In this document: positions 1,280 to 25,200 of the stretch, in pieces | Position numbering within the stretch: position 1 is the first letter of the stretch | How the letters are laid out: each line of letters opens with the position of its first letter | NCBI GenBank assembly: GCA_026770705.1 | Contig: JANJGN010000034.1 | Span: forward strand, 7,068,001 to 7,132,000 | From: Isurus oxyrinchus | Taxonomy: Eukaryota | DNA: 64,000 bases | Direction of reading: 5' to 3' | Notes under the pieces: generated by a model | Databases searched by the model: none | What the model was told of the DNA's origin: nothing | The model's input: only the letters and a program-made list of their open reading frames with translations | Translations under genes and position numbers: made by a program

Positions 1280-1294
1280 AAAATGTAAAGAAGG
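1280..1294 (+). CDS. Micro-exon Q1 (15 nt), (E)NVKK
   Basis: ttaccgattcacag|AAAATGTAAAGAAGG|gtaagt; identical in 3 copies. Confidence 0.8.
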
Positions 1295-4200
1295 GTAAGT
1301 ATAAGTAAGTTACAGAAAATCTACTTGTAAAGCAAAATAAATAAGTTGCCCTAAAAATTCATCACTGGTGCAATCGGCCCAATATCCCGTCAAGTATGCT
1401 GCTTTTGTCGAAGATAGAGTTAATTCCCTTTTTTCACGTCCTTCTGTGACATCACCCTTCCCCATCTGTGTAACCTTCCACAGCTAAAAATGCATTTTTA
1501 ATCTACCTAATTTGCTTCCGTAGTTTCTGATTTAGTACTTTTCCAGTCCCCACATCTACACGCTTAAGACATTCCCTAAAAACTGTCCCTCAGAGTGGTC
1601 AGCCTTGATACCTTTTATAATATCTCTCAACCTGTTCGTTGTGGTTCTGTTACTATTTCTTCCATATCCATGAATGTTTCTGCCTTCTTTGTCATTGTCT
1701 GTTTAGTATAAGTATATTAACCTCTTCAGCCTAATCCAAAAAAAAGCTCATATCGCATGAAGCTCCCCAGGGGACATTGGAGTGGAATGAACATGAGCCA
1801 GGATGTGACCACTTCGAAAAGCGCACCTTTTTAAGAGAACCTGGAAGGCTGATTAAGCGCACACCTGATAGGCTTTGATGCTCATATTGCTTCTCTCTGC
1901 ATTCCAGAGCTAGGCATCTGCCAAGATACCATAAAAGATTTAGGTGAGCCAATCACTTTTGATGCCTGCTGAATTTACCGACCATTTGCTTTACTCTTAA
2001 ATCAAGCAAAGCTCCAAGTGTTTCCAAAGCACAACAGAGAAAGAAGAATTCTGGAGCATTAATGCAGTTTTTTTAATAAAAGGTCAACTTTAAAGCAATG
2101 ACAGATTTGTTCTCTATGGGGAGCTGAACTGTCAGTCAAAGTGTTTTCGTGCAAAACTCGGTCAGAATCTAGGCAAGTGACTTTATGGATTGTTCATTGT
2201 TCAGAATGATTCACATAGACCATATCATGGATAAAACTTCGCCTGCGTTGGAGCACCAGTTGCTGGCATTCAATTGACAGACTGATGTAGGTTCATGTGT
2301 GTAATCAGCTGCATGAATACAATGGAAGTGAATAATTGGGGTGCGTATATAATCTTCCCTCTCTATGACATGGAACATTTTGCCAGGCTCCCCAAAATGG
2401 AAATTCATCGTGTAGAGCTTGGTTACAGTGATTGGTTTTACACATATGGTTCTGAATCAGCACTTGCCATCACATATCGCCAATTTTAATTGTTGTTGTC
2501 TCCAAGGTAAAAAAAAGACCTGTACCTTTTTGACGGAAAGTACGATAAAAAAGAACGGTTATATGACCATAGGAATGCAGCTTCATTTCTGTTATCTCCA
2601 GGCTCCATGGTGTGCATTTCCCTCCTATAGAGCCACTGCGAAGTAAAGAGGAAAATTTCAAGATTCATTCTTGTTTGAGCGATAAGATCAGGAGCAAGTT
2701 GCCAGCTAGCAACGAATAAATGGCTGTTCTCAATTTTCCATGAGCTGTTCCATACAAGTTTCACTGTGTTCCACATGCTCAAGGAGAGTTGTGTTTGCCC
2801 TGCACTATCACCCACATGCAGAATAGCTTGAATTCCAGTGAGAACATTTCCACGTTAGGTCGTAGAAACGTTCATTTTATTATTGATTCTTGATTTGTTT
2901 CACAGATAAATTAAGAAAAGGTAAGAGGAAATATGATCTAGTACGTGACCATCTAAATGGATGAAAAGAAAGATGAGTAAAGATGGATTCGCAGTGATTA
3001 CACATTCCAACTTAAAGTAACTTTTAAATTGTCATTATTATATCTAAAGCTCTCTGTGGGCTCGCCCTTCCAAAAATGCCATGAGAATCCTCTGGCCATA
3101 CAACTGGCTGCAAGTTCTGTGTTCACACCACGCTGGTTTTGTTCAGATTGCGCTGTTCCTTCACCATACCAATGGCGTTTTATGGCTTCTGCAATATGTC
3201 CGAAGTCTCCGAAGCATGTTTGCTAAACTTTGCACCTCAAAGTCCCCTTCCGACTTTAATAATCACATATTTCCTGGGCGGTTTCCAAAGTCCATCCCTT
3301 GTCCTCACCCGGGAGTCTGGCTAATAATTGAAGTTTTGTTTAAAACATGATGAAAAACATTGAGGCTCCTTACGCCCTGTGGCACTTCGGTTACCGAGAA
3401 GGCCTGTTAGGAAACTTAAAAATACTGAGCATACGATGCTTCGGCAAACGTGTCCTCAGAACAAGCAAGGGAATACATGGCATCTTAAACAACACAGTGG
3501 CTCTTCTGGCGAACGAAGGCTGCAGCAGAAACAAACCTCCAATCGTATTCGTTTTTTTGCCATTGTACCAAGTTGTCATTCTCTAAAGACATGCATGGAA
3601 GTTGCTGTGCAATGGTCTCTCCATCCTTAAATTTCGCTCGAACGGGCATCTTTCTTTCCGAGCCCATCTACCATGCCATCAGATCACCAGCGAATGGTGC
3701 AGGGAGCATTGTTGTCTTGTATCGAAACTATTACTTGAAATATGCTTGCACTGCATTTGGTCATTTGAGAAAGTGAGCATTCGAAGGTCGCAAAACCAAA
3801 ACTAAGAGGACGCTCATGATTTGTTATTTGTCCATGATTTCCACCTTACTGTACGGGACTGCAATATGGAAAACGTTCAAGTGGCACCTCAAGGGGACTG
3901 GCTGCGAAAGAAATTGCATATTTAGTGTGAGGGCTGACCAGCGAAATCTAGTACCCACTTACAAACAGGCAGCATAGGCTTTGGATCTATGCTCATATGC
4001 GATCAGCTTCAGTGAGTCCAGCTGTCAGGTATCAGGCTCACAAATCAGGTATTGTTCTCCAAAGTTATACAGGACAGACGCACCAGAGAGGGCAGAAAAA
4101 GATTTAATGAATGTGCTGAAAAGCAACATGAAGAAAATGAATTATTCACATCGACACCTCGATGGACACCGTTTATGGAGTAAGCCAAATGGCACCAGGC

Positions 4201-7200
4201 CCTATAGGATGGACGCCAACAATTTGAGTCTGAACAACTACAAAGTGATTAGAAAAAACAAGAGGGGCCAAAGGAAAACAGCATGACCCAAATTAATGAT
4301 ACAAGACCTGACATCCAACAAGGCAACAAATGCCTTGGGTGCATGAAGACTACAGGTCCCGAATATGCCTTTTCATCCATCTCAGGCTCATGGAAGACAA
4401 TCGTCCTCGCTACTGAGGCATTGCCAGTAATAACAGGAATTGCAAGCAATTAATCACGTGTCCCGATGTGGCCTCATGTTGCATCTGCACCAGTTTTGTC
4501 GAAACTGCTTCCGTTGTAACAATTTTGGTGTTTTCCTAATAAGGTCACGATATTCATGCAAATTGTCCTTTCCTGTCAACAGTCTACTTTCAACCTCTAC
4601 CAGCAAGTTTCTGCAACAAAATCTGAGGAAACAGTTGCCCACAGGATGAAAATTTTTACGGAAGAGAAACTAAACATTTGTAACATAAACGAAGAACACA
4701 GCTTGTCATAGATCAGTTACAGAAAAGAAAGAGGCCGTCTGGCTCTTCTTGTCGGAGGCAAATCTCTGGGTCAGTATCTCGGCTGTTCCCATGCTCCAGA
4801 CCTTCACCTGCAGTGTATGCAACTCGCTTGTTATTCAAAGAATTACCCAGCTCCAAATTAAAAGCCACGATTGTCCCTTCGCAGAGCTCATTCTAAAGCA
4901 TTGCCTTTTGGAACCTGATGATGTGCTGCACATTTATTTTTCCCCATGTCCCCTTTAGTTTTCTGTCAGTTAACGTTAAATTAATGTCTTCCAGTTCTTG
5001 ACCATTCCAGATGGAACAGTCTATACCTGCCTAACATGTCCAGGCCTCGTCATGAATTTTATAAGCCCCATCAAATCTTCTTTCAATCATATTGTATCTA
5101 TGTACAACCGCTATAAATTCTCAATTCCTTTCACCTGGAAGAAGCAATCATCTCTGGAAACATTCCCATGAATACAATCTCTACACTCTCTAACACTATG
5201 ACTTCTCCCTAAACTATGATGTCCAAAACCTGATCCAATTCCCTAGTTGAAGTCGAACTAGCGGTTAAACAGTTTTACCATAACTTCCTTTCTTTGCTGC
5301 CTATTCATCTATTTATGAAGCCGAATATTTCAACTGGCTTAGTGACAGCGTTTTCAATCTGCCCTGCATCTTGCAACCATTTGTGCTCAGAAACTCCCAA
5401 AGACCCATAAACAGCTTCAATCCACTTTGGAAAACTGTCACAAGTTGTTCATTACCTCTTCCTACCAAAATGTATCACTTCATGCCTCTCGCCACTAATT
5501 TCAATTGAAAAGTTCCTCCCATTCCACCAGTCCATCTGCGTCCATTTGTCCTATTTCACCATCTTCCTTGCAATTCATAGCCCTGTAAAATCTGTAAACT
5601 TTGAAGTTTTGCCCTGTACACTCAGGTCGAGGTCGCTGATGCATACCATGTAGATAGATTGAAAGGGGGAAACTGCGCAACTTTGTTGACACTTCAGTGT
5701 GGATTATCCATTTTATGAATTACAGAGCTAAGCGATTGTCAACAAGCTGTTAAAGGCCTAGGTGAGCAAAATATTCCTGGTGTCGCTTTAGATTAACATG
5801 CCTCATTATTTTGAACCATTAAGCAAATACTTTTGTTTTCGTTAAAAAGTGAAGTAATTCAGGCAAACATTGTTTAGCGATAGGCCCACATTCGCTTCTT
5901 TGGATTTCAATTAAAAAAAATGTTGGGATCAAAGCAAAACAGGCTGACCGTCCAAAAGTGGGCAGAATGAATTTCTGATGCTCCATGCATCATGATAATT
6001 GAAGCTTTTTGTCACAACTCTTATGAATCCTGCATACTAACGGAATGATGACTTTTAACTTTATCGATTTGGCACCAAGTTGGCAAAGTGTTCTAACCAA
6101 TAACGAAACTCCGCCCACCCGTGAAAAGTGTTGTTTAATCCTACAATTTTTGGTCTCTTTATTATGTAATCCCGAACAGAACAAAAACTGACTGCAAAAG
6201 AAAAAGGTACCTGATCTGACAATTTTTTCTTCAAAAAGACAGAGATTGACAATGGCGATTGCTTCTTTACATGATTAGTTTTGTTGTCGTATGAATGTTT
6301 TATGTTTTTTTTTTTACTAAGCAGATTGCTAGTGGGTACCCTAAGGGTTGGCAGCAGAAGAATCCGATACGTGGGCTATATAGTTTCGAGTTAGGAGAAC
6401 ATATTTTCCTATACTGTGTCACACAAATTTGCAAAACATAAATAACATGTAAACTAATCAACTGAATAAGGAATTCCCTTAATGCTCCTTCAACAAGGCA
6501 GTAGTAACAAGGAGGTACCCGCTAAAACAGTGAAGTTAGAAATGAAATGTATGTGGTGGTTAAGAATGACAGGTTTGCTGATAGAGTTTATGAAGGAGTT
6601 CTTGTGACGCTGTTGTGGAGTCACAAATTTCGGCCAGAAGCTCTCCTTTCAAGTCTCACTTCAGGACTTGCTGGCTGTTGAAGCTGTTTTTGTAAGGTGG
6701 CCGGCTGTATTGGTTACCATCTTGTAAAACCTTTCAATGGGCCTGGCGGCAGGTTCTAAGGACGGGAGAGATGCTGGCTCATCAGACAGCAGAAAGAAAC
6801 GTCAAGTGACTGTCGTACTTTGCCAAGCATAATCATGGCCAAATCCAATGGACATCCATGATCACTAACACCCTCTCAATGCAAGTTACCTGGAAAAGCA
6901 GGAATGAAATAATGTACATGGTACGTTGCTCTGATGGAGGATAGGCTTAGGCATGGGACACTTGACTGGAAGGACAGATATTTTCCGCTAATTGATATGG
7001 GTCAGACTACACACTCGGTGCAAAATTCATTAGATTTAATTCATTTTTTTGAAATGTAACTCACTCCAAATTGGTAAGGAAAAATGACAGAACACCCTCC
7101 ATAGTTGATCGGTGATGTACCTAGCCAGGGGGAAGCACAGTGTATCTACTTAAATAATGTCATTGAACAATCGTTACCGGGAAGTATTTGGCAAAGTCCC

Positions 7201-10200
7201 GCAATAAAAGAAAATCTGCAAAAGCATTTGGTTTTATGGTTGCGCAAGTTAATTTGCTAACAGAAGCACGGTGCATGTTACTAATTGAGACTTACAGCGC
7301 TAGTAAAGATGGAATTATGTGATGTCTTATTTTTTTAAACATGTAAGATATGCTAGTAAAATATACTAAAGCATGCCATGCATCGATTGGATGGCAGACT
7401 TGGGGAGATTCAATGTAATGTCTCTGTATGTTGCTGCCCATCCGGTACTCAAGTAAGGTGACTGATGCCAACCTTGTGCTTATGGCTACTGCAACCCCAG
7501 CACTCTGCAATGTTTATTATGTGCTTTTCATTAAAATGGAGTACGAAATGGCGGCCCAAATTAGACCTCGTATTTTCATGAATATGATACAAGGATCAGC
7601 TGGGGGAAATATTCTGCCATTATTTATGGGTAGGATAAGTCAGTGATTCATGGGGATGTGAGCGGAAGTACATATGGTAATATGAGATGCATTATGTCGA
7701 TGTATGGAACATGTGGACGGACATAATCCACTTTGTCAAATAAATTGAACAGTACTGTAAAATCTGTATGGTAATTCGGTAGGATGGGGGGGCAGGAGGG
7801 AGAGGGGGAAGCGGTCTGAAATTGAAATAATGAAGAAACTGTCAATTCTCATTATTCCAGAGATTCTAACGTGCAAAGAGTCTTTAAAGGATTCAGGTGG
7901 GAAATATGTTTGTTATTTGATTAAAATACCCGCTGCACAAAATATTCCTACAATTCCTAGCCCACAGGTAGAATACGGAAATGCCGATCAGTAATTTTAA
8001 ATATACAGAAGTAAACTTTGCCTGCATCATTTAGTTACCCAGTAAAGAACGAGGCCAACCCTCCACCTTACCTGCTACTGCTATATGAAAGAGTTTTATC
8101 TCTCTCCATCTCTCTCTCTCTCTCTCTTATAAGCTGTGTTTCAGAAATCTTTTCATGCAACCTTCTAAACGCTTGTTCTACACAATACGGTGCTGCTTCC
8201 CACCTATCCCCTCGGCCCACCCTATGCTTTGTCTATGAATAACCATACATCTGTGTTTCTTTGTTGCTGGTTGTACTGGACTTACAAACCTTTAATTGTT
8301 ATTTAATTTCTTAAGAATGATGGTCTGATAATATTGGGCGTCATTATCATAGGGTCTATTAACATTTTTGCCATGATCAGAAACATATCAGCTCCCCTCC
8401 ACTGTCTATATAACTGCCCGCCCTGGTACTGTCGATTAAATCTTCCCTGTGCGCCCAACACGATTTGTGAATAATTGCAAAGCATGGTGCGTCGAATTTG
8501 ACTACATATACTAAAGTGGTGCATATTAAACAACAAACATGGAGAATCTGCATTGAATGTCAATGTATTGGTTAGATACACATCTTCAGCGGCGAGTTCT
8601 CCGTCAATTGTTGATCACGACTAATGTGTGGCATGGTTAGCTGAGCTGGTTGTCTGGCGGAGCGTGGAATGGAGGGCCATTGCAATAGGGTCAGTTTCAC
8701 GCTACATCCAAGGATCACTATTTACCACTATATGTAGCATGATCTACATTATTGTATTGTTGCAGAGGAATGCACGTAGCAGTATGCTTGACATAGCAAC
8801 ATTTTAAAAATGTACATCCACCTGCAAACACGTGGCTTTGCATATAAAAAATGAACTGTTTCAATGAGTCCACAATCTTCCCGTTAACGTCTTGCCTTGA
8901 CAGAAACAAAGCTGGAAGGCCAAGAAAAAGGTAGGCAGTTTAAGGGTTCACTGTTTTAAAAAGACAGAAATTAATGTGTTACGAATATACCTATGCATCT
9001 TTTGTTTCATGATTAACTTCTCTGAAATAGAATTTAGCGTTATTAACGGGAAGAGCGGTTGCATTTGGTAATGGGCTCTATATGGAGAAAATGGTTCAGC
9101 TTGATGTCACAGCCAAAGCTGAGAGCCAGTTATGTTGGAGTTTAACACTAATCCAACCTGATACTCAGGAGGAAAGTATTCATCAACAAAACGACCAGAA
9201 TTTGGAATTCGCTGCTGCGTCATCCTTTGTTAAACGGAATTTTACAACTTTTTTTAAAGTCCAAAGACAGTTATCCACCGAGATCCGACGAAAGTTCAAG
9301 CGACTTGATTATCCAGGAGTAAACTTCGTGTGGTCCATGAAAATTTCACTTCAGCATTTTCAACTCCAGAGTAATGACCCACGTGAATTGTTAAGCAAGT
9401 GTACCTTGTGTTTGCATTCTGGTGTAAAGACTGTTACTACCAAAAAATAACGATGCCTTCACTTGTAGACATGCTCAGTTTTTGGGTCATGACTTCATAA
9501 GGATACATGTTGAACTCTAAATATCCAGACTGTGTAACTTCAGTTGGTTTGCAGTCGTTTCAGGGGCCATGTGTGATTGAAACGAGTGACGATAACTAGT
9601 GCCCCCTTATAAGCAGGCAACATAAGCTTTGGGTCTATGCTGATGTGCGATCAGATTCGGCGAGTTGGCACTTAGTTTGGCTGTCAGGTATCAGGCTCAC
9701 AATGCAGGTATTGTTCTCCAAGATTAGCAAGGACAGACGCACCAAAGGAGGGAAGAGGAAGCTCTTAAGGGATGTGCTGAAAAGCAACAAGAAAAAAATG
9801 AATTATTCATATCGGCACCTCGGTGGACACCGTTTAGGGTTTAAACAAAATGGCACCAGGCACCACAGGAAGGACCCCAGTAATTTGAGTCCGATCAACT
9901 ACAAAATGATTAGGAAAAACAGGAGGGGCCAAACGAAAACAGCATGACCCGAATTAATGATACAAGACCTGACGTCCAGCAAGGCAAGAAATGCCTTGGG
10001 TTCATGACGTCTACAGGTCTCGAATCTGTCTCTTCATCCAATTCAGGCTCATGGAAGACAATCGACCTCGCTAGTGAGGCGTAGCCAATAATAACAGTAT
10101 CTGCAAGCGAGCAGTCACGTGTCCCGATGTGGCCTCATGTTGCATGAGCTCCAGTTTTCTTCAAACTGTTTCCGTGGAAACAATTTTGGTGTTTTCCTAA

Positions 10201-13200
10201 TAAAGTCACTATATACATGCAAATTGTCCTCTCCTGTCAACAGTCTACTTTCAATCTCTAGCAGCAAGTTTCTGCTGCCAAATCTGAGGGAACAATTGCT
10301 CGCAGGATGATGACTTGGGGTTTCTTACAGTACAGTTAACCATGAGGGAGAAAACCATGTTTCCTGAAGAGAAGCTAAACATTTGTAACATAATCAAATA
10401 ATACGGCTTGTCATAGATCGGTTACAGCAAATAAATAGGCCATCCAGTTCTTCGTGTCAGGGGCGTATCCCTGGGCCAGTATCTCGGCTGTTCTCATGCT
10501 CCAGACCTTCACCTGCAGTGCATGCAACTTCGTGCTCTTCATAGATCCCTGTTAAAAGCCACGATTGTCCCTTCGCCAATCTCATTCTTAGGTATTGCAT
10601 TTTCGAAACTAATGTTGCGCTGCACTGTTATTTTTCCCCATGTTCCCTTTGGTTTTCTGTCAGTTAACATTAACTTAATATCTTCCGATTCTTGACCATT
10701 TCAGATGGAACCGTCTACACCTGCTTAACATGTCCAGGCCACATCGTAAATTTGAAAAGCCCCATCAATTCTTCTTCCAATCATCTCGTATCTGTTCACA
10801 ACCGCACTAAATTCTTTATTCTTACAACCTCGAAGAAACAATCATCTCTGGAAACATTCCCATGAATACACGCTCAACCCTCTCTAACGCCATCACTTGT
10901 CCCTATACTATGATGTCCAAAATATAATACAATTCCCTAGTTGAAGTCGAACTAGCGGTTCAACAATTTTTCCATTAATTCCTTTCTTTGCTGCAATTCA
11001 TCGATTTATGAAGCCGAAGATTTCATCCGGCTTAGTGACACCTGCCCTGCATCTTGCAACCATTTGTGCTCTTATACTCCCAAAGCCCCATAAGCAGCTA
11101 CAATCCCCTTTGGAATGCTATCACAACTTGTTCATTACATCTTTCTACCAAAATGTATCACTTCATGCCTCTCTCCACTAATTCCAACTGTAATAACTCC
11201 TCCCATTCCACCAGTACATCTGCGTCCAATTGACGTATTTCACCATCTTGCTTGCAACTCATCGCCCTGTAAAATCTGAAAACTTTGAAGTTTTGCTTTG
11301 GACACTCAGGACTAGGTCCATGATGCATACCATGTAGATAGATTGGAAGGTGAAAACTGTGCAATTTTGTTGACACTTCAGTGTGGATTACCCATTTTAT
11401 GAATTACAGAGCTAAGCGATTGTCAACAAGCTGTAAAAGATCTAGGTGAGCAAAATATTCTCGGTATCGCTTTAGAATACATGCCTTATTTTTTTGAACC
11501 ATTAAGGAAGTACATTCATTTTCGTTAAAAGGTGAAGTCATCAATTCAGGCAGACGTTGTTTAGCAACAGGCCCACATTCGCTTCTGTTGATTTCAATAA
11601 AAGAAAGTGCTGGGCAGGAAGCAAAAAAGGCCGACCATCCAATCGTGGGCAGGATAAATTTCCGATGCTCCTTGCATCATGATTATTGGCTCTTTTTCTC
11701 ACAACGATACTGCCGGAATGATGACATACACGCTGATGGAATGATGACATTTTTTATCCTTGTCAATTTGGCACCAATTGGCAAAGTGTTCTCAACAATA
11801 ACGAAATTCTTTCCACTCGTGAAAAATGCTGTTTAATCCTACAGTTTTTGGTTTATTTATCATGTAATCCCGAACAGAGGAAAAACTGACTGCAAAAGAA
11901 AAAGGTACCTCATCTGACATAGTTTTCGTCAAAAAGCCAGAGATTGACAATGGCTGACTGATTCTTTAGATGATCTGTTTTGTTTTCGTATGAATGTTTT
12001 ATTGTTTTTTTTTTACTAAGCAGATTGCTAGAATTTACCCGAAGTGTTGGCAGCAGAAGAATAGTATAGATGGGCTGCATATTTTCGAGTTAGGAGGGCA
12101 TATTTTCTAATGCTGTGTCATACAAAGTTGTAAGACAATAAATAACATGTCAACTAATGAACAGAATAAAGAAATCTCTTAATGTTTCTTAAACAATTTA
12201 TTGGTAACAACGAAGCACCTGCTAGCACCGTGAAGTTAGAAATAAAATGCTTGTGGTGTTTAAGAATGACAGGTTTGCTGATAGAATTTATGAAGGAGTT
12301 TTTGTGCCGCCGTGGTGGAGTCTCAAATTTTGGCCAGAAGCTCCACGTCCAAGTCTCACTTCCGGACTTGAAGGCTGTTGAAGCTGTTTTTCTAAGGTAG
12401 CCAGCTGTATTGGTTACGATCTTATAAAGCATTCCAATGCACCTGGCGGCAGGTGCTAAGAACGGGAGAGATGCTCGCCAGTCAGACAGCAGAAAGCAAC
12501 GTCAAGTGACTGTCGTACTTTGCCAAGCATAATCGTGACCAAAACGAATGGCCATCTATGATCACCAAAACCCTCTCAATGCAAGTAACCTGGAAAAGCC
12601 GGAACGAAATAATGTATGTGGTATGTTTCTTTGGTGGAGGATAGGCTTAGGCATGGAACACTTGATTGGAAGAGTAGATATTTTCTGCTAAGTTATATCG
12701 GTCGGACTACCCTCTCGGTACCGAATTCATTAGAATTATTTTTTTTTTCTAAATGTAACTCAGTCCAAATTGGTAAGGAAAAATGACAAAACGCACTCTA
12801 TATTTGCTCAGTGGCGTTCCTAGCCAGGTGGAAGAAAAGTGTATCGACTTTAATAATGTAATTGAGCAATTGCTCATGGCAAGAACTTGGCAAAGTCCTG
12901 CAATAAAAGAAAATCTGCAAAAGCTTTTGGTTTAAAGGGTGTGAAAGTTAATTTGCAAACAAAAGCACGGTGCATTTTGCTAATTGAGACTTTCAGCGCC
13001 GTTAAAGATGGAATTATGCTATGTCCCATTTTTTAAGCATGTATAGTATGCTAGTAAAATACACTTAAGCATGCCATGCAACTATTGGATGATCATCTCG
13101 GGGAGATTCAATGTGATGTTTCTGTGTGTTCCTGCCCAAACTGTGCTCAAGTAAGGTGAGTGATGCCAGCGTCACGCTTATTGCTACTGCAACCTCAGAA

Positions 13201-16200
13201 CTCTGCTTTTCATTAAAATGCAGTACAAAATGGCGGCCCAAATGAGACCTCGTATTTTCATGAATATGATACAAGGATCAGCTGAGGGAAATATTCTGCC
13301 ATTATTTATGGGTAGGATAAGTCAGTGATTCATGAGGATGTGAGCGGAAGTACATATGGTAATATGAGATGCATTATGTCGATGTATGGAACACGTGGAC
13401 GTACATAATCCACTTTGTCAAATAAATTGAACAGTACTGTAAAATCTGTATGGTAATTCGGTAGGATGGGGGGGCAGGAGGGAGAGGGGGAAGCGGTCTG
13501 ATATTGAAATAATGAAGAAACTGTCAATTCTCATTATTCCAGAGATTCTAACGTGCAAAGAGTCTTTAAAGGATTCAGGTGGGAAATATGTTTGTTATTT
13601 GATTAAAATACCCGCTGCACAAAATATTCCTACAATTCCTAGCCCACAGGTAGAATACGGAAATGCCGATCAGTAATTTTAAATATACAGATGTAAACTT
13701 TGCCTGCATCATTTAGTTACCCAGTAAAGAACGAGGCCAACCCTCCACCTTACCTGCTACTGCTATATCAAAGAGTTTTATCTCTCTCCATCTCTCTCTC
13801 TCTCTCTCTCTTATAAGCTGTGTTTCAGAAATCTTTTCATGCAACCTTCTAAACGCTTGTTTTACACAATACGGTGTTGCTTCCCACCTATCCCCTCGGC
13901 CCACCCTATGCTTTGTCTATGAATAACCATACATCTGTGTTTCTTTGTTGCTGGTTGTACTGGACTTGCAAACCTTTAATTGTTATTTAATTTCTTAAGA
14001 ATGATGGTCTGATAATATTGGGCGTCATTATCATAGGGTCTATTAACATTTTTGCCATCATCAGAAACATATCAGCTCCCCTCCACTGTCTATATAACTG
14101 CACGCCCTGGTACTGTCGATTAAATCTTCCCTGTGCTCCCAACACCATTTGTCAATAATTGCAAAGCATGGTGCGTCGAATTTGACTACATATCCTAAAG
14201 TGATGCATATTAAACAACAAACATGGAGAATCTGCAATGAATGTCAATATATTGGTTAGATACACATCTTCAGCGGCGAGTTCTCCGTCAATTATTGATC
14301 ACGACTAATGTTTGGCAAGGTTAGCTGAGCTGGTTGTCTGGCGGAGCGTGGAATGGAGGGCCATTGCAATAGGGTCAGTTTCACGCTACATCCAAGGATC
14401 ACTATTTACCACTATATGTAGCATGATCTACATTATTGTATTGTTGCAGAGGAATGCACGTAGCAGTATGCTTGACATAGCAACATTTTAAAAATGTACA
14501 TCCACCTGCAAACACGCGGCTTTGCATATAAAAAATGAACTGTTTTAATGATTCCACAATCTTCCCATTAACGTCTTGCCTTGACAGAAACAAAGCTGGA
14601 AGGCCAAGAAAAAGGTAGGCAGTTTAAGGGTTCACTGTTTTAAAAAGACAGAAATTAATGTGTTACGAATTTACCTAAGCATCTTTTGTTTCATGATTAA
14701 CTTCTCTGAAATAGAATTTAGCGTTATTAACGGGAAGAGCGGTTGCATTTGGTAATGGGCTCTATATGGAGAAAATGGTTCAGCTTGATGTCACAGCCAA
14801 AGCTGAGAGCCAGTTATGTTGGAGTTTAACACTAATCCAACCTGATACTCAGGAGGAAAGTATTCATCAACAAAACGACCAGAATTTGGAATTCGCTGCT
14901 GCGTCATCCTTTGTTAAACGGAATTTTACAACTTTTTTTTAAGTCCAAAGACAGTTATCCACCGAGATCCGACGAAAGTTCAAGCGACTTGATTATCCAG
15001 GAGTAAACTTCGTGTGGTCCATGAAAATTTCACTTCAGCATTGTCAACTCCAGAGTAATGACCCACGTGCATTGTTAAGCAAGTGTACCTTGTGTTTGCA
15101 TTCTGGTGTAAAGACTGTTACTACCACAAAACAACGATGCCTTCACTTGTAGACATGCTCAGTTTTTGGGTCATGACTTCATAAGGATACATGTTGAACT
15201 CTAAATATCCAGACTGTGTAACTTCAGTTGGTTTGCAGTCGTTTCAGGGGCCATGTGTGATTGAAACGAGTGACGATAACTAGTGCCCCCTTATAAGCAG
15301 GCAACATAAGCTTTGGGTCTATGCTGATGTGCGATCAGATTCGGCGAGTTGGCACTTAGTTTGGCTGTCAGGTATCAGGCTCACAATGCAGGTATTGTTC
15401 TCCAAGATTAGCAAGGACAGACGCACCAAAGGAGGGAAGAGGAAGCTCTTAAGGGATGTGCTGAAAAGCAACAAGAAAAAAATGAATTATTCATATCGGC
15501 ACCTCGGTGGACACCGTTTAGGGTTTAAACAAAATGGCACCAGGCACCACAGGAAGGACCCCAGTAATTTGAGTCCGATCAACTACAAAATGATTAGCAA
15601 AAACAGGAGGGGCCAAACGAAAACAGCATGACCCGAATTAATGATACAAGACCTGACGTCCAGCAAGGCAAGAAATGCCTTGGGTTCATGACGTCTACAG
15701 GTCTCGAATCTGCCTCTTCATCCAATTCAGGCTCATGGAAGACAATCGACCTCGCTAGTGAGGCGTAGCCAATAATAACAGTATCTGCAAGCGAGCAGTC
15801 ACGTGTCCCGATGTGGCCTCATGTTGCATGAACTCCAGTTTTCTTCAAACTGTTTCCGTGGAAACAATTTTGGTGTTTTCCTAATAAAGTCACTATATAC
15901 ATGCAAATTGTCCTCTCCTGTCAACAGTCTACTTTCAATCTCTAGCAGAAAGTTTCTGCTGCCAAATCTGAGGGAACAATTGCTCGCAGGATGATGACTT
16001 GGGGTTTCTTACAGTACAGTTAAGCATGAGGGAGAAAACCATGTTTCCCGAAGAGAAGCTAAACATTTGTAACATAATCAAATAATATGGCTTGTCATAG
16101 ATCGGTTACAGCAAATAAATAGGCCATCCAGTTCTTCGTGTCAGGGGCGTATCCCTGGGCCAGTATCTCCGCTGTTCTCATGCTCCAGACCTTCACCTGC

Positions 16201-19200
16201 AGTGCATGCAACTTCGTGCACTTCATAGGTCCCTGTTAAAAGCCACGATTGTCCCTTCGCCAATCTCATTCTTAGGTATTGCATTTTACATCGTAAATTT
16301 GAAAAGCCCCATCAATTCTTCTTCCAATCATCTTGTATCTGTGCACAACCGCACTAAATTCTTTATTCTTACAACCTCGAAGAAACAATCATCTCTGGAA
16401 ACATTCCCATGAATACACGCTCAACCCTCTCTAACGCCATCACTTGTCCCTATACTATGATGTCCAAAATATGATACAATTCCCTAGTTGAAGTCGAACT
16501 AGCGGTTCAACAGTTTTTCCATTAATTCCTTTCTTTGCTGCAATTCATCGATTTATGAAGCCGAAGATTTCATCCGGCTTAGTGACACCTGCCCTGCATC
16601 TTGCAACCATTTGTGCTCTTATACTCCCAAAGCCCCATAAGCAGCTACAATCCCCTTTGGAATGCTATCACAACTTGTTCATTACATCTTTCTACCAAAA
16701 TGTATCACTTCATGCCTCTCTCCACTAATTCCAACTGTAATAACTCCGCCCATTCCACCAGTACATCTGCGTCCAATTGACGTTTTTCACCATCTTGCTT
16801 GCAACTCATCGCCCTGTAAAATCTGAAAACTTTGAAGTTTTGCTTTGGACACTCAGGACTAGGTCCATGATGCATACCATGTAGATAGATTGGAAGGTGA
16901 AAACTGTGCAATTTTGTTGACACTTCAGTGTGGATTACCCATTTTATGAATTACAGAGCTAAGCGATTGTCAACAAGCTGTAAAAGATCTAGGTGAGCAA
17001 AATATTCTCGGTATCGCTTTAGAATACATGCCTTATTTTTTTGAACCATTAAGGAAATACATTCATTTTCGTTAAAAAGTGAAGTCATCAATTCAGGCAG
17101 ACGTTGTTTAGCAACAGGCCCACATTCGCTTCTGTTGATTTCAATAAAAAAAAATGCTGGGCAGGAAGCAAAAATGGCCGACCATCCAATCGTGGGCAGG
17201 ATAAATTTCCGATGCTCCTTGCATCATGATTATTGGCTCTTTTTCTCACAACGATACTGCCGGAATGATGACATACACGCTGACGGAATTATGACATTTT
17301 TTATCCTTATCAATTTGGCACCAATTGGCAAAGTTTTCTCAACAATAACGAAATTCCTTCCACTCGTGAAAAATGCTGTTTAATCCTACAGTTTTTGGTT
17401 TATTTATCATGTAATCCCGAACAGAGGAGAAACTGACTGCAAAAGAAAAAGGTACCTCATCTGACATAGTTTTCGTCAAAAAGCCAGAGATTGACAATGG
17501 CTGACTGATTCTTTAGATGATCTGTTTTGTTTTCGTATGAATGTTTTATTGTTTTTTTTTACTAAGCAGATTGCTAGAATTTACCCGAAGTGTTGGCAGC
17601 AGAAGAATAGTATAGATGGGCTGCATATTTTCGAGTTAGGAGGGCATATTTTCTAATGCTGTGTCATACAAAGTTGTAAGACAATAAATAACATGTCAAC
17701 TAATGAACAGAATAAAGAAATCCCTTAATGCTTCTTAAACAATTTATTGGTAACAACGAAGCACCTGCTAGCACCGTGAAGTTAGAAATAAAATGCTTGT
17801 GGTGTTTAAGAATGACAGGTTTGCTGATAGAATTTATGAAGGAGTTTTTGTGCCGCCGTGGTGGAGTCTCAAATTTTGGCCAGAAGCTCCACGTCCAAGT
17901 CTCACTTCCGGACTTGAAGGCTGTTGAAGCTGTTTTTCTAAGGTAGCCAGCTGTATTGGTTACGATCTTATAAAGCATTCCAATGCACCTGGCGGCAGGT
18001 GCTAAGAACGGGAGAGATGCTCGCCAGTCAGACAGCAGAAAGCAACGTCAAGTGACTGTCGTACTTTGCCAAGCATAATCGTGACCAAAACGAATGGCCA
18101 TCTATGATCACCAAAACCCTCTCAATGCAAGTAACCTGGAAAAGCAGGAACGAAATAATGTATGTGGTATGTTTCTCTGGTGGAGGATAGGCTTAGGCAT
18201 GGAACACTTGATTGGAAGAGTAGATATTTTCTGCTAATTTATATCGGTCGGACTACCCTCTCGGTAACGAATTCATTAGAATTTTTTTTTCTAAATGTAA
18301 CTCACTCCAAATTGGTAAGGAAAAATGACAAAACGCACTCTATATTTGCTCAGTGGCGTTCCTAGCCAGGTGGAGGAAAAGTGTATCGACTTTAATAATG
18401 TAATTGAGCAATCGCTCATGGCAAGAACTTGGCAAAGTCCTGCAATAAAAGAAAATCTGCAAAAGCTTTTGGTTTAAAGGGTGTGAAAGTTAATTTGCAA
18501 ACAAAAGCACGGTGCATTTTGCTAATTGAGACTTTCAGCGCTGTTAAAGATGGAATTATGCTATGTCCCATTTTTTAAGCATGTATAGTATGCTAGTAAA
18601 ATACACTAAAGCATGCCATGCAACTATTGGATGATCATCTCGGGGAGATTCAACGTGATGTTTCTGTGTGTTCCTGCCCAAACTGTACTCAAGTAAGGTG
18701 AGTGATGCCAGCCTCACGCTTATTGCTACTGCAACCTTAGAACTCTGCTTTTCATTAAAATGCAGTACAAAATGGTGGCGCAAATTAGACCTCGTATTTT
18801 CATGAATATGATATAAGGACAGGCTGAGGGAAATATTCTGCCATTATTTATGTGTACGATAAGTCGGCGCATCAGGAGGAAGTGAGCGGAAGTACATATG
18901 GTAATATGAGATGCACCATGCCGTAGAATGGAGCGTGTGGAAGGACATAATCCACTTTGTCAAATACCTTGACCAGTACTGTAAATTCTGTATAGTATGT
19001 CGGGAGGATGGGGGGCGGTGGGGGGGGGGGGGGCTGTTGTTCGGGAGGTGGGGGGGGAGGAGAGGGGAAACGTGCTGAAATTGAAATAATGATGTAAATC
19101 TCACATCTCACTGTTCTAGAGATTCTAACGTGCCAAGAGTCTTTAAAGGATTCAGGTGAGAAATATATTTGGTATTTGTGTACAATACACGCTGCACAAA

Positions 19201-22200
19201 ATATTCCTGCAATGCCTAGCCCACCGATCAAATACAGAAATGCTAAGCAGTAATTGAAATGTACATATGTAAACTGTGCCTCCATCATATAGTTACCAAG
19301 CAAAAAATAGGCCTATCCTCCACCTTGCCTTTTACTGCTATATGAAAGAGTTTTATTTCACTCCATCTCTCTTTCTCTCCCTCTCTCATTATCTGCGTTC
19401 CAGAATTTTTTTCACACAGCCTTGCACATGCTTCTTCTGCACAATAAGGTGTTGCTCCCACCCAAACCCCTCCGCCCCTCCCAATGATTTGTCTATGAAT
19501 AACCTTATAACTTTGTTTCTTTGTTGCTGGTCGCAATGGACGTGGGAACCTTTTATTGTTATTTAATTTCTTAAGAATGATGGTCTCATTATAAAGGGAG
19601 TCATTATCATAGGGTCCATTAACATTTTTGCCATGATCAGAAAAATCTCCGCTCCCCTCTGCTGTCTATATAAATGACGCCCGTAGTAATGTCGATTAAA
19701 TCTTCCCTGTGCTCCCAACACGATTTGTGAATCTTTGCAAATTTGAATAAAATATCCAAAAGAGAGGCATATTAAACAACAATCGTGGAGAAGCTGCATT
19801 GATTGCCGACGTATTCGTTAGATAAACATCTTCAGCAGTGAGTTCTCCGTCAATTATTGATCACGACTAATGTGCGGCACTGTTAGGTGAGCTGGTTGCT
19901 GGCTGGTCGTGGAATGGAGCGCTGTTGCGATTGGGTCAGTTCGACGCTACAGTCCAGGATCATTATTTACCTCAACATGTAGCATCATCTACGTTATTTT
20001 TTGGGAGGTATGCACACAGCAGTATGCCAGACATAGCGACATGTTAAAAATGTAAATCCACCTGCAAACATGTGGCTTTTCATATATAAAATCAATGATT
20101 CCACAATCTTCCTGTTAACGTCATGCCTTGACAGAAACAAAGCTGGAAGGACAAGAAAAAGGTAGGCAGTTTAAGCGTTCCCTGTTATAAAAAGACAGAA
20201 ATTAACGTGTTAGGAACATACCCATGCATCCTTTGTTTCATGAGTAACTTCACTGAAAATCCGGAAGTTGATGTCACAGTTTACAAGGATATGAGTCACT
20301 GTGGTAATGCCTCAAAAATGAATTATTAAGTGACATGTAATATGGAGTTTCTCCAATTTAGTGAACAATGTGAAATCATACCAACGGGAAAATTATCAGT
20401 CATATCGGCCTTCAGAGGGCTGAACAAGCAAAGGAAACAGTTAAATATTTTTCAGTGAAAATTAAGTGACCATTTCTTTTCTATTGACTTCCCAGAGCTA
20501 AACGATTGTCAAGATATTCTGAAAAATTTCGGTGAATAACGCACTGTAATTGCATAATTACATTTCTATCTATCCACTTGTAGTAGAGTCAGCAATGCTT
20601 CAAAGAACATGCGAAATTTCCGAGTGAAATACAAATGCCTAAGTATGCGTTTTTGAGATAGTGAATGTTTTGTTAGCAAAACATATGCGGAAATGTATGA
20701 GGCACCATGGGGAATGGGATCATTAGTTCCTTGCCACTACACTCTAGCAAGTAATTAGCTCATGCTTTGATAAGATTTTCACTGATATAAATCCTGCTCT
20801 GGCAGAAATGCCTCTAGGGCAAGAGCACAAAATGTAAAACAGCCGAAGGTACACTCTGTGACAGAAAAGGAGGCAGGAAGAGGGTGGAAAATTCAGGCTA
20901 GGTAGCCCATCGTATGTCACTGGAAAATGCTGGAATCCATTATTAAGTAACTAGTAGCAGCGTATCGAGAACATTACAATCCATTCAAGTGGAAGCACCA
21001 TTTTGTTCTCTCAAAAGGAAATCGTGTTTAATAAATCAATTAGTGTTCTTGTCGTATGTAACAAGCGGGGTTTGCAAATGGAATCCAGTATCGTCCTTGC
21101 CAAAAAAACACATCCATTAAGGTGCCATATGAAATGTAACAATAAATAATAAGATTTTATGGTGCTGTGCATAATGTAATACCACGATCAGGAGATTGGT
21201 AACCTAACAGGAAACAGAGAATCTGGATCAACGTATCATTTTCTGATTGGAAAATTTTAACTGGTGGGATCAATAATAGACCTTCAGCTATTAACAATAT
21301 ATATTAAACTTTGGAAAGAAGAGGTCGAGTGCATTGTTCCCAAAGTTGCTGGCGTTTGCAAAGGTGGGAAAGGAATCAATTTGCGGAGACTGCACTTCTG
21401 GTCTGAAAAACATTGAAGATAGTTTAAGTGAATAATCATAAAGAATAGCAGATGGAACGTGATGTGGGAAAATGTGCGTTTGTACAGGAGGAAAACAGGA
21501 GCAGATTGTTAATGATTGGAAAAAAAATATCAGAATACAGCATGCTGAAAGATTGGTGTATCCTTGTATATGAATCACAAATGAATATAGCATGAATGTA
21601 AAGCACGAAGTTTGGCAGGAAAGCAGATTTTGGGCTTTAATGTACAGGAGAGGGCGCTTCAGAAAAGGCAATTATTTTTCCCAATACCAAGGGTGAGACC
21701 TCATTTGGAGTATTGCAAACGGCTACCATTCCTTTATTTGATGGGCGAATGAGGTGGGGGTGGGGGGGGTAGGGTGAGGAGTTGTTGAACATGCATGCAT
21801 TGGAGGCACTTAGTGAATGTCCAATCGGTTGACTTAGAGGATTTACTCTGACCAGTAAAGTTTGAGAAGATGGCTCCTACATTCATTTTGGCTTAGCAGA
21901 AATAATGGTCATCTTACTGAAGCATATATGATTCTGACAGGACAAATGCGAGTATATCTGATCCTCTTGAAGGGGAATCAAAAGGTAGCAGACGCAGTTT
22001 CAAAATAAGGCATCTTCCTGTTAAGACAGAGTTTTCCCTTCACTGAATCGTTAATATTGCAAGTCACTAAAGCAGTGGACAGTGTAGTCTGTGTCATCGA
22101 ATATTTTATAAGACTTCATCTTAACCTACGGCACAATTAATTCTTATGGGGTTGATAATGATGTAAAAACAGAAAAGAACTGCTGAGGTTTGGAATCAGA

Positions 22201-25200
22201 AATGAAACAGATAATGCTGGTAAAACATAGCCGGTCTGGCATCATCTGTGGAGAGAAAAAGGGGAATTAACTTTTCGAGTCCATATGCCTCTTCTTCACA
22301 GCTGGTTGTGGAGTTAATGCAGGGAAGTGGATTTAAGGCCCTACCAGATTAGTTATATTCTTTTGGAGTAGAGGGGAAGGTTAGAGGGGACAATTGGCCG
22401 ACTTCTGTTATCTTTTCTTATGTTTTGGCGTTGTTATGTGGCGACTTCACTATTTGTCCTTTCTCAAAACTGCACACAGCCAAAGTCTGTACCAGCTCCA
22501 TTGGATTGAGAATGATAAATATCTGGTTGTAATCACAAGGATCTCAGAGATTTACTCATTCATCCAGACTGCTGAACACAATGTTTTCTTTTGGGGAGAA
22601 AAGCACCGTAAATGAACGGTAAAGACCTTAAGCTTTACTCTCGTTTGGATATCAATAACCGGATCGACCAGTCAATCATCAGCATTCAAAGGAAGAGAGA
22701 GTTTTTAACTTTGCTACGGGATGTCTGATAGCGAATTGCGGATCGTTTTCTTTTATGCTCAGTGACATTCTACCTCCTGTAACTTTTCTATTGTTTATAT
22801 TTCCTTTACCGATTCACAGAAAATGTAAAGAAGGGTAAGTATGCGTAAGTTACAGAAAATCACCTTGTAAAGCAAGATAAATAAGTTGCCCTATAAATTC
22901 ATCCCTGGTTCAATGGGCCCAATACCCCGTCAAGTATGCTGTCTTATGTCGAAGATAGAGTTATTTCCCTTTTATTCACGTCCCTCTGTGACATCCCCCT
23001 TTCCCATCTGTGTAACCTTCCACAGCTCAAAATTCATTTTTAATCTACCTATTTTGCTTCCTTAGATTCTTGTTTAGTACTTTCCCAGTCCCCACCTCTA
23101 CACGTTTAAGACATTCTCTAAAACCTGTGCCTCCGAGTGATCAGCCTTGATACCTTTTATAATATTTCTCAACCTGTTCGTTGTGGTTCTGTTACTATTT
23201 GTTCCATATCGATGTATGTTTCTGCCTTCTTTGTCATTTTCTGTTCATTAAAAGTATATTAACCTCTTCAACCAAATCCGAAAAAGGCTCATATCGCATG
23301 AAGGTCCCCAGGAGACATTGGAGTGGAATGAACATGAGCCAGGATATGTTTTCTTCAAAAAGCGTACCTTTTTAAGAGAACCTGGAAGGCTGATAGGCTT
23401 AAATACTCATATTGTTTCTTTCTGCATTCCAGAGCTAGGAACCTGCCAAGATACCACGAAATATTTAGGTGAGCCAATCATTTTTGATTCCTGCTGAATT
23501 TCCCGACTGTTTGCTTTACTCTTAAATCAAGCAAAGCTCCAAATGTTTCCAAAGCACAATGGAGAAAGAACGATCCTGGAGCATTAATGCAGTTTTTTTA
23601 ATAGATGGTGAACTTTAAACCAATGACATGTTTGTTCTGTATGGGGAGCTGAACTGTCAGTCAAAATGTTTTCGTGCAAATCTCGGTCAGACAAATGGCA
23701 AGTGACTTTATGGCTTGTTCATTGTTCGCAATGATTCACGTAGATCATATCATGGATAAAACATTGCCTGCGTTGTAGCACCAGTTGCTGGCATTCAGTT
23801 GACAGACTGATATGGGTTCACGTGTATATTTAGCTGCATCACTACCATGGAAGTGAATATTTGGGGTGGGTATATAACCTTCCCTCTCTACGACAAAAAA
23901 CATTTTGCCTGGCGACCCAAATAGGAAATTCATTGTGTAGAGCGTGTTTACAGTGATTGATTTTACCCATGTGGTACCGAATCAGCACTCGCCATCACAT
24001 ACCGCCAATTTTAATTGTTGTTAGGTCCAAGGTTAAAAAAAGGACGTGGACCTTTTTGACGGAAAGTATGATAAAAAAAAGTACGGTTATATGACCTTAG
24101 GAATGCACAATCATTTATGTTATCTCCACGCTCCATGGTTTGCATTTCCCTCCAATTGTGCCACTGCGCAGTAAAGAGGAAAACTACACTATTCATTACT
24201 GTTTGAGCGATAGGATCGGTAGCAAGTTGCAAGCTAGCAGCGAATAAATGGCTGTTGTCAACTTTCCATGAGCTGTTCCATACAATTTTCACTGTGTTCC
24301 AGGTTCTAAAGGACAGCTTTGTTTGCCCTGCACTGTCGGCCACATGCAGAATAGCTTGACTTTCAGTGATAACATTTCCGCATTAGATCGTGGAAGCGTT
24401 CATTTTATTATTTATTTCTGATTTGTTTCACAGATAAATTAAGAAAAGGTAAGTGGAAATATGCTCTAGCACCTGACAGTCTAAATGGATGAAACGAAAG
24501 ATGAGAAAGTTGGATTCGCAGTGATGACATATTCCAATTTAAAGTAACTTTTAAATTGTCATTATTATATCTAAATCCCTCTGTGGGCTCGCCCTTCCAA
24601 AAATGCCATGAGAATCCTCCGGCCTTATATCTGGCTGCAAGTTTTTTTGTTCACACCACGCTGGTTTCGTTCGCATTACGCTGTTCCTTCACCTTACCAA
24701 TGGCATTTTATGGCTTCTGCAATATGTCCGAAGTCTCAGAAGCATGTTTGCTAACCTTTGCGCCTCAAAGTCTACTTCCACCTTTAATAATCACATATTT
24801 CCTGGGCAGTTTCCGTAGTCCACCCCTCGTCCTCACCCCGGAGTCTGGTCAATAATTTGAAGTTTTGTTCAAAACGTGGTGAAAAACATTGAGGTTCTTT
24901 ACGCCCTTTGGCACTTCGGTTATCGAGAAGGGCTGTTAGGAACATTAAAAATACCGAGCATACGATGCTCTGGCAAACATGTCCTCAGAACAAGCAAGGA
25001 AGTACATGGCATCGTCAACAACACAATGGCTCTTCTGGCGAACAAAGGCTGCAGCAGAAACAAACCTCCAATCATTTTAGTTTTCTGTCATTGTACCAAG
25101 GTTTCGTTCTCTAAAATCACGTGTAGACGTTGGTGTGCAACGGTCTCTCCATCCTAAAATTTCGCCCGAATGGGCATCTTTCTTTCCGAGCCCATCTACC

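Follow-up and report, generated by a model that had tools for sequence, protein, structure and literature searches.

A predicted cysteine-laddered coiled-coil rod spelled by micro-exons in a giant B30.2 gene of Isurus oxyrinchus

What protein is spelled by dozens of exons of only 15, 27 or 36 nucleotides (nt), and why does the same residue of the 36-nt exons so persistently read cysteine? The question is raised by a 64,000-nt stretch of the 4.98-Gb Isurus oxyrinchus genome (the window; C34:7,068,001-7,132,000, plus strand, where C34 is contig JANJGN010000034.1), in which an initial annotation had described a repeated unit of four small exons, A to D, as part of a cysteine-bearing coiled-coil rod. 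We found that the window lies midway along a ~1.04-Mb gene whose micro-exons start at about C34:6,459,146 and whose large terminal exon (C34:7,496,442-7,496,962), likewise outside the window, encodes a B30.2/SPRY domain. In the reading that we favour, and to which we give an even chance on sequence grounds, the product would be a secreted rod of two parallel chains, linked by a ladder of interchain disulfides and carrying B30.2 at its tip.

Micro-exons and heptad register in the window

Similarity and splice-site scans recovered 42 phase-1 micro-exons in the window. They fall into ten types, all on the plus strand and bounded by AG/GT, and follow the order GEH ABCD ABCD ABCD FGEH ABCD ABCD ABCD IJ FGEH CD ABC (Table 1); we regard them as practically certain to be real. 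Spliced in this order, they gave 413 codons with no stop, 21 cysteines and no histidine, and the predicted helix of ~61 nm (0.1485 nm per residue) agreed with the ~60 nm first proposed for the window's portion of the rod. Exons A, B, C and D were recovered as AG/GT-bounded phase-1 exons, as initially drawn, with A+B and C+D each 63 nt long and exactly six heptads per A-B-C-D unit. The proposed unit length of 5.6 kb suited part of the array: three of the six A-to-A intervals were close to it (5684, 5547 and 5650 nt), but the other three were 8353, 10294 and 19705 nt.

Cysteine occupied residue 5 in all 20 of the 36-nt window exons (7 A, 8 C, 3 E and 2 F), just as had been claimed. The accompanying claim of one cysteine every 21 residues applied to 13 of the 20 window intervals; the remainder were 17 (five times), 25 (once) and 14 residues (once), because the window also contains pairs of 36+15 nt and one pair of 27+27 nt.

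Across three ABCD units, the spectrum of hydrophobicity peaked at a period of 3.5, and none of 1000 shuffles equalled this peak. Because the units are near-identical, the three-unit spectrum is not independent evidence; with a single 42-mer, 30 of 5000 shuffles equalled or exceeded the signal at period 3.5. The best of the seven registers placed a at residue 2 and d at residue 5 (mean Kyte-Doolittle hydropathy of the core 2.04; runner-up 0.21), with L, V, L, I, L and L at a (residues 2, 9 and 16) and C, L, K, C, S and Q at d (residues 5, 12 and 19). The 3-4 heptad pattern suggested initially was upheld by this register, although several d positions are polar (K19/Q19 and S12).

Residue 5 was then compared along the whole gene. 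Within C34:6.846-7.26 Mb, a central zone of ~1,800 amino acids (aa), it was Cys in 73 of 80 36-nt exons; outside this zone it was Leu in 18 of 30 exons upstream and in 22 of 27 downstream. Removing the array copies left Cys in 31 of 37 central-zone exons (codons TGC, 23; TGT, 8). Since residue 5 is Leu on both sides, Cys appears to stand in for a core Leu inside a bounded zone, which, together with the best register, sustains the earlier placement of Cys at core position d. These patterns make a coiled coil very highly probable, and cysteines within its core scarcely less so. The a/d and e/g pattern suggests a parallel orientation of the rod; a 3-4-3-3-4 stammer would arise at the 36+15-nt pairs (17 aa, with a hydrophobic residue 3 in the 15-nt exon) and a stutter at the I+J pair (18 aa).

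A megabase-scale gene and its cartilaginous-fish relatives

We traced exons in both directions with a splice-site and composition model. A strict threshold predicted 293 exons against 5 on the minus-strand control, and on this comparison chance open reading frames were rejected; a short-period tandem repeat was likewise rejected as an explanation of the window's exons. A looser threshold plus the array copies gave 356 exons (control between 21 and 41), a set in which roughly a tenth may be false and from which divergent exons are missed; the absence of stops in scan-derived exons is by construction. The looser set predicts a product of ~3,490 aa with 133 Cys and a length of ~520 nm, and we infer that all exons join into one chain of ~3,500 residues. 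The gene begins with single-heptad exons of 21 nt, a size confined to its 5' end. Titin has 363 exons, by a search-listing figure; if the chain is made in full, the exon count would come near that number, and the rod would in our judgement rank among the longest coiled coils.

The terminal exon matched the Pfam SPRY model above the cut-off (E=3.4e-12) and Atlas SPRY clusters at 0.96, with no match to the Pfam PRY model. Its best solved relative in the PDB was the B30.2 domain of BTN3A1 (E=5.8e-20), with matches across residues 4-166. A histidine of BTN3A1 has a role in the phosphoantigen pocket, and this His aligns with Ser in the giant gene's B30.2 domain. C34 holds five related B30.2 exons, and those inspected were preceded by micro-exons.

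These features suggest how such a rod could be built. Each 36+27-nt exon pair would add three heptads and leave frame and register unchanged, and because such pairs are neutral in both respects, unequal crossing-over of a whole ABCD unit would lengthen the rod by 42 residues (~6 nm). Cysteines that face each other at d positions, spaced 17-25 residues apart, would hold the two chains in register and bridge polar core positions, stammers and stutters, an arrangement conditional on secretion. Paired B30.2 heads at the rod tip may bind a partner, so that the product would be a long covalent spacer or a fibre-forming unit with a recognition end. The extracellular domain of PLVAP offers a works-like model: the consulted parts of PMC10083539 describe a parallel dimeric coiled coil in which interchain disulfides, placed symmetrically at distances of 11-25 residues, compensate for polar residues in the core and for a break in register. 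Cysteine at heptad core positions a/d is common to PLVAP and the giant gene and no homology is claimed; PLVAP differs as a type II membrane protein of ~390 extracellular residues with nine cysteines and no B30.2 domain. BST-2/tetherin resembles PLVAP as a works-like model.

The ABCD array also bears marks of turnover. All 116 array copies in C34:6.85-7.31 Mb had AG/GT boundaries and no stop, at an intron divergence of ~15-19%, and Cys5 was conserved in 46 of 47 A, C, E and F copies. The window's gene and the gene ending at C34 6.396 Mb are tandem duplicates, the former being the copy, and relative to the copy in this sister its B30.2 exon showed purifying selection (proportion of nonsynonymous differences, pN, 0.038; of synonymous differences, pS, 0.102; ratio ~0.37). 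We counted 17 A copies in the window's gene, compared with 10 A-like matches in the sister gene. Intron patches of neighbouring units in the window were 98% identical (7897-8903 and 13579-14587; 11446-11877 and 16993-17424) beside patches of 84-87%, a patchiness which suggests that conversion or unequal crossing-over took place recently.

We searched 1.84 billion representatives with HMMER and obtained 14 matches at E<=1e-30. The best single-domain matches were skate, catshark, electric-ray and chimaera models, with an epaulette-shark model somewhat lower, and the gene's closest database relatives, among the matches listed, came from cartilaginous fish only. We built a midpoint-rooted FastTree tree from 46 of the 150 listed matches and six B30.2 domains of the same genome (52 domains in all); it placed the gene's domain in a 15-member clade with support of 1.0, separate from the six Ig (immunoglobulin)-bearing and all TRIM domains included. 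All seven named members of this clade are chondrichthyan, among them XP_042192744 (chimaera, 'nuclear-pore anchor-like'), XP_055510696 (skate, 'TRIM69-like'), XP_038668997 and XP_038672308 (catshark), XP_069775385 (electric ray) and XP_060706632 (epaulette shark). Pfam found SPRY alone in all seven family models scanned, with no Ig or RING domain. The database models share the coiled coil, the B30.2 clade and this domain content with the giant gene; they differ in being automatic, 221-1722 aa long and named after TRIM, BTN or coiled-coil proteins, and none has a Cys ladder as regular. The chimaera protein (XP_042192744/P0164; 1697/1722 aa) carries the giant gene's [E/D]L..C repeats along its rod, a C-terminal SPRY domain and a hydrophobic N-terminus, and because its rod has these repeats the core Cys is likely older than the split between chimaeras and sharks and rays. 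A two-chain complex prediction for residues 385-600 of P0164 reached 0.24 against a mark of 0.32 and was counted neither way. Word-indexed searches found no protein at E<=1e-20 among those of 302-2000 aa with the giant gene's B30.2 domain, only itself and its older model with the chimaera rod, and only its own cluster with the skate protein.

Three known families share parts of this architecture. Like the giant gene, butyrophilins carry a C-terminal B30.2 domain in one large exon after small heptad exons. They differ in their IgV/IgC and transmembrane exons, of which none was found in the giant gene, and in having few heptad exons rather than hundreds; moreover, the giant gene's B30.2 domain falls in the separate chondrichthyan clade. 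TRIM-B30.2 E3 ligases share the succession of coiled coil and B30.2 domain and gave many matches at E ~1e-13 to 1e-19, whereas the giant gene has no RING or B-box that we could find, a micro-exon rod and a separate place in the tree. Enterophilins are cytosolic proteins of heptads plus B30.2; no mention of them occurred in 20 listed papers. Chicken BG and the zipper protein have in common with the giant gene a coiled coil spelled by many tiny duplicating exons; in the parts of PMC4046983 consulted, BG coiled coils come from 13-36 exons of 21 or 24 nt, whose number rises and falls through duplication. Chicken BG has IgV, a transmembrane segment, a cytoplasmic tail and no B30.2 exon, while the giant gene has ~290-356 exons, mostly of 36+27 nt, a B30.2 tip, a core Cys ladder and no IgV or transmembrane exon found. 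By its sequence features, the family falls outside butyrophilins, BG and TRIM proteins, yet it has their heptad-exon and B30.2 parts.

We found no description of the family in the literature searched, which covered few subscription journals and no supplements. True Ig-bearing butyrophilins with variable heptad number occur in cartilaginous fish according to PMC12841164, whose passages on these butyrophilins, as far as consulted, do not include the giant-gene family. Public annotation shows the family merely as short, misnamed models. If the favoured reading is true, a mainly cytosolic immune recognition domain would be in extracellular use in the oldest jawed-vertebrate lineage, with a bearing on how butyrophilin and BG heptad tails evolved. 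The ABCD unit would also be a natural module for disulfide-stabilised coiled coils, in which a single exon, available in a Leu and a Cys version, would allow direct comparison.

Compartment of the rod and competing readings

Secretion of the family, which we judge probable, is suggested by hydropathy: three of the seven named relatives (skate, chimaera and epaulette shark) have a signal-like hydrophobic N-terminus, which in the skate protein XP_055510696 is a classic signal-like leader. These N-termini also make interchain disulfides likelier than metal binding for the family. Three sister genes have a second exon resembling the tail of a signal peptide (C34:4,859,457; ~4,005,536; 3,991,854, minus strand). 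For the window's own copy, secretion stands evenly poised, since the duplication removed the family's first exons. Lacking those 5' exons, the gene must use an internal ATG, the first exons of the sister by long-range splicing, or another leader. The deletion junction in the window's gene copy is seamless (C34:6,455,835-6,455,840). The earlier suggestion of an extracellular stalk found no support, as no transmembrane exon was found.

Several observations weigh against a secreted, disulfide-linked rod. The 5' flank of the window's gene is colinear with the sister at 4,827,827-4,850,373 and then resumes at 5,091,193, so that ~241 kb is missing, including the sister's signal-tail second exon. No leader exon was found in the stretch retained upstream of the window's gene, and searches upstream of sister genes 0 and 1 likewise failed to establish a leader. 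Four of the seven named relatives have no hydrophobic N-terminus by hydropathy, and N-glycosylation sequons are not enriched (11 against 10.3 expected). The B30.2 domains of TRIM proteins and butyrophilins are cytosolic. Amino-acid constraint among array copies is modest, because exonic pN (0.084) is near pS (0.108; pairs not independent), and the A copy at C34:7,050,291, alone among the 17, has Phe in place of Cys5. BG and BTN heptad tails are cytoplasmic in the account given by the consulted parts of PMC4046983. Two leader candidates were dropped: C34:4,843,371, for which the duplicate showed no conservation, and C34:4,852,725, a hydrophobic 30-nt stretch without its own ATG and unmatched in gene 0.

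Another leader lies close by. An apparently intact, nectin-like gene with a single IgV domain and a transmembrane segment directly follows the giant gene (leader C34:7,510,720; V exon 7,513,578; transmembrane exon 7,524,026; candidate tail exon 7,551,132). Its V exon matched V-set (E=1.2e-10), with nectin-2 and nectin-1 as the closest solved relatives and PVR, CD226 and TIGIT also matched. A duplicated 5' half of this gene supplies an orphan phase-1 leader with a strong donor (C34:6,421,428-6,421,476), 38 kb before the giant gene's first micro-exon; no transmembrane exon is present there, and the duplicated V exon, from C34:6,424,335, kept its splice sites and is disrupted by two 1-nt deletions and a stop. 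Identity to the intact copy is 95% over the 100 bases preceding the orphan leader, compared with 85% in the background, but this is weak evidence of capture because constraint on the intact copy alone could almost account for it. Use of the orphan leader by the window's gene is therefore put forward as a weak hypothesis. The boldest form of the favoured reading is an undescribed secreted B30.2 family of cartilaginous fishes in which this member, a ~350-exon, ~3,500-residue, half-micrometre rod, would have 50-100 interchain disulfides, a length tuned by duplication of four-exon units, and a promoter and signal peptide taken, once its own first exons were lost, from the duplicated nectin-like leader; we consider the whole of it doubtful.

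The main rival is a cytosolic rod, possible if rather unlikely, in which coiled coil and B30.2 domain, in this copy or in the whole family, remain in the cell, as in the BG-derived zipper protein, and the reduced core cysteines serve as small core residues or redox switches. Beyond the cytosolic habit of B30.2 domains and the four relatives with no hydrophobic N-terminus, it draws on the loss of the signal-tail exon in the 5' deletion and on an in-frame ATG in the first retained 21-nt exon. In the parts of PMC4046983 consulted, the zipper protein is described as a BG heptad tail in soluble form, with a regulatory action on actin-myosin. Against a cytosolic rod, cysteine is focused on one core position over ~1,800 residues with both codons in use, and is shared with the chimaera protein, whose N-terminus is hydrophobic; we infer that disulfides fit this concentration better than a reducing compartment does. 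We give less weight to a membrane anchor, to metal binding and to a pseudogene.

A membrane-anchored receptor of butyrophilin or BG type, with the rod as its cytoplasmic tail and either an Ig or transmembrane exon that escaped detection or an N-terminal anchor that stays uncleaved, seems improbable. The closest solved domain is indeed that of BTN3A1, the first exons are single 21-nt heptads as in BG genes, basic residues follow the chimaera's hydrophobic N-terminus as in N-terminal anchors, and a leader and an IgV exon lie upstream of the giant gene. However, the hydrophobic stretches of the relatives, 11-13 residues long, are short for a membrane span, and SPRY stood alone in the seven family models. 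Pfam scans of open stretches of at least 75-80 aa found no Ig or RING match in 89 upstream of the window's gene or in 62 upstream of the sister, and hydropathy and exon scans, as genomic prediction, gave no credible transmembrane exon upstream of the window's gene. A V-set search across the genome, in which 150 of 3319 candidates were scored, placed no Ig exon at the locus; the one V exon close by is that of the nectin-like neighbour, broken in the upstream copy.

A shade less probable again is a three-stranded coiled coil acting as a metal sink, whose d-layer cysteines would, every 17-21 residues, coordinate soft metals at trigonal thiolate sites. Designed three-helix peptides show such binding, and the ladder does place Cys regularly at a core position, but we saw no second ligand (His or Cys) nearby, and the window peptide lacks His. 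An a layer of L/V/I with a d layer of C/L/K/S/Q, polar d residues and g-e charge pairs would suit a dimer at least equally. Least probable of all, and very improbable, is that the exons are relics of a 5'-truncated, unexpressed duplicate: the missing ~241 kb and the array-copy pN/pS of ~0.8 speak for it, but the 116 array copies are stop-free and correctly bounded at ~15% intron divergence, the B30.2 exon is constrained relative to the sister, and ABCD has been amplified further here.

Related loci and features of the window

Two family genes lie head to head within ~14 kb at C34:3.99-4.01 Mb, with an inverted repeat at ~3.994-3.996 Mb. Contig C21 holds a huge cluster of B30.2 exons at ~83-118 Mb, from which the majority of the 150 scored matches come and in which at least one exon (89.72 Mb) is a member of the micro-exon family.

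Within the window, two incomplete units keep the frame, D being followed by F without I and J (20162-20495) and H by C without A and B (55162-57402). The B-C intron at 27735-32024 has grown to 4.3 kb, with a GC content of up to 0.52 at 28001-30000, and is probably enlarged by a mobile-element insertion. In the I-J intron, 229 N (47201-47429) follow a TC microsatellite and may conceal an exon.

Table 1. Micro-exons of the window, in order (Cys5, cysteine at residue 5)
Type	Position	Strand	Length (nt)	Remark
G	1280..1294	+	15	with F, 17-aa stammer module
E	1908..1943	+	36	Cys5
H	2906..2920	+	15	
A	5726..5761	+	36	Cys5 at heptad d; unit of the initial annotation
B	6180..6206	+	27	same unit
C	7861..7896	+	36	Cys5 at heptad d; same unit
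D	8904..8930	+	27	same unit
A	11410..11445	+	36	Cys5
B	11878..11904	+	27	
C	13543..13578	+	36	Cys5
D	14588..14614	+	27	
A	16957..16992	+	36	Cys5
B	17425..17451	+	27	
C	19120..19155	+	36	Cys5
D	20135..20161	+	27	
F	20496..20531	+	36	Cys5
G	22820..22834	+	15	
E	23433..23468	+	36	Cys5
H	24434..24448	+	15	
A	27251..27286	+	36	Cys5
B	27708..27734	+	27	
C	32025..32060	+	36	Cys5
D	33074..33100	+	27	
A	35604..35639	+	36	Cys5
B	36073..36099	+	27	
C	37730..37765	+	36	Cys5
D	38776..38802	+	27	
A	41254..41289	+	36	Cys5
B	41715..41741	+	27	
C	43339..43374	+	36	Cys5
D	44389..44415	+	27	
I	45608..45634	+	27	Cys at residue 9; with J, 18-aa stutter module
J	48749..48775	+	27	
F	51199..51234	+	36	Cys5
G	53525..53539	+	15	
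E	54148..54183	+	36	Cys5
H	55147..55161	+	15	
C	57403..57438	+	36	Cys5; unit without A and B
D	58436..58462	+	27	
A	60959..60994	+	36	Cys5
B	61416..61442	+	27	
C	63039..63074	+	36	Cys5

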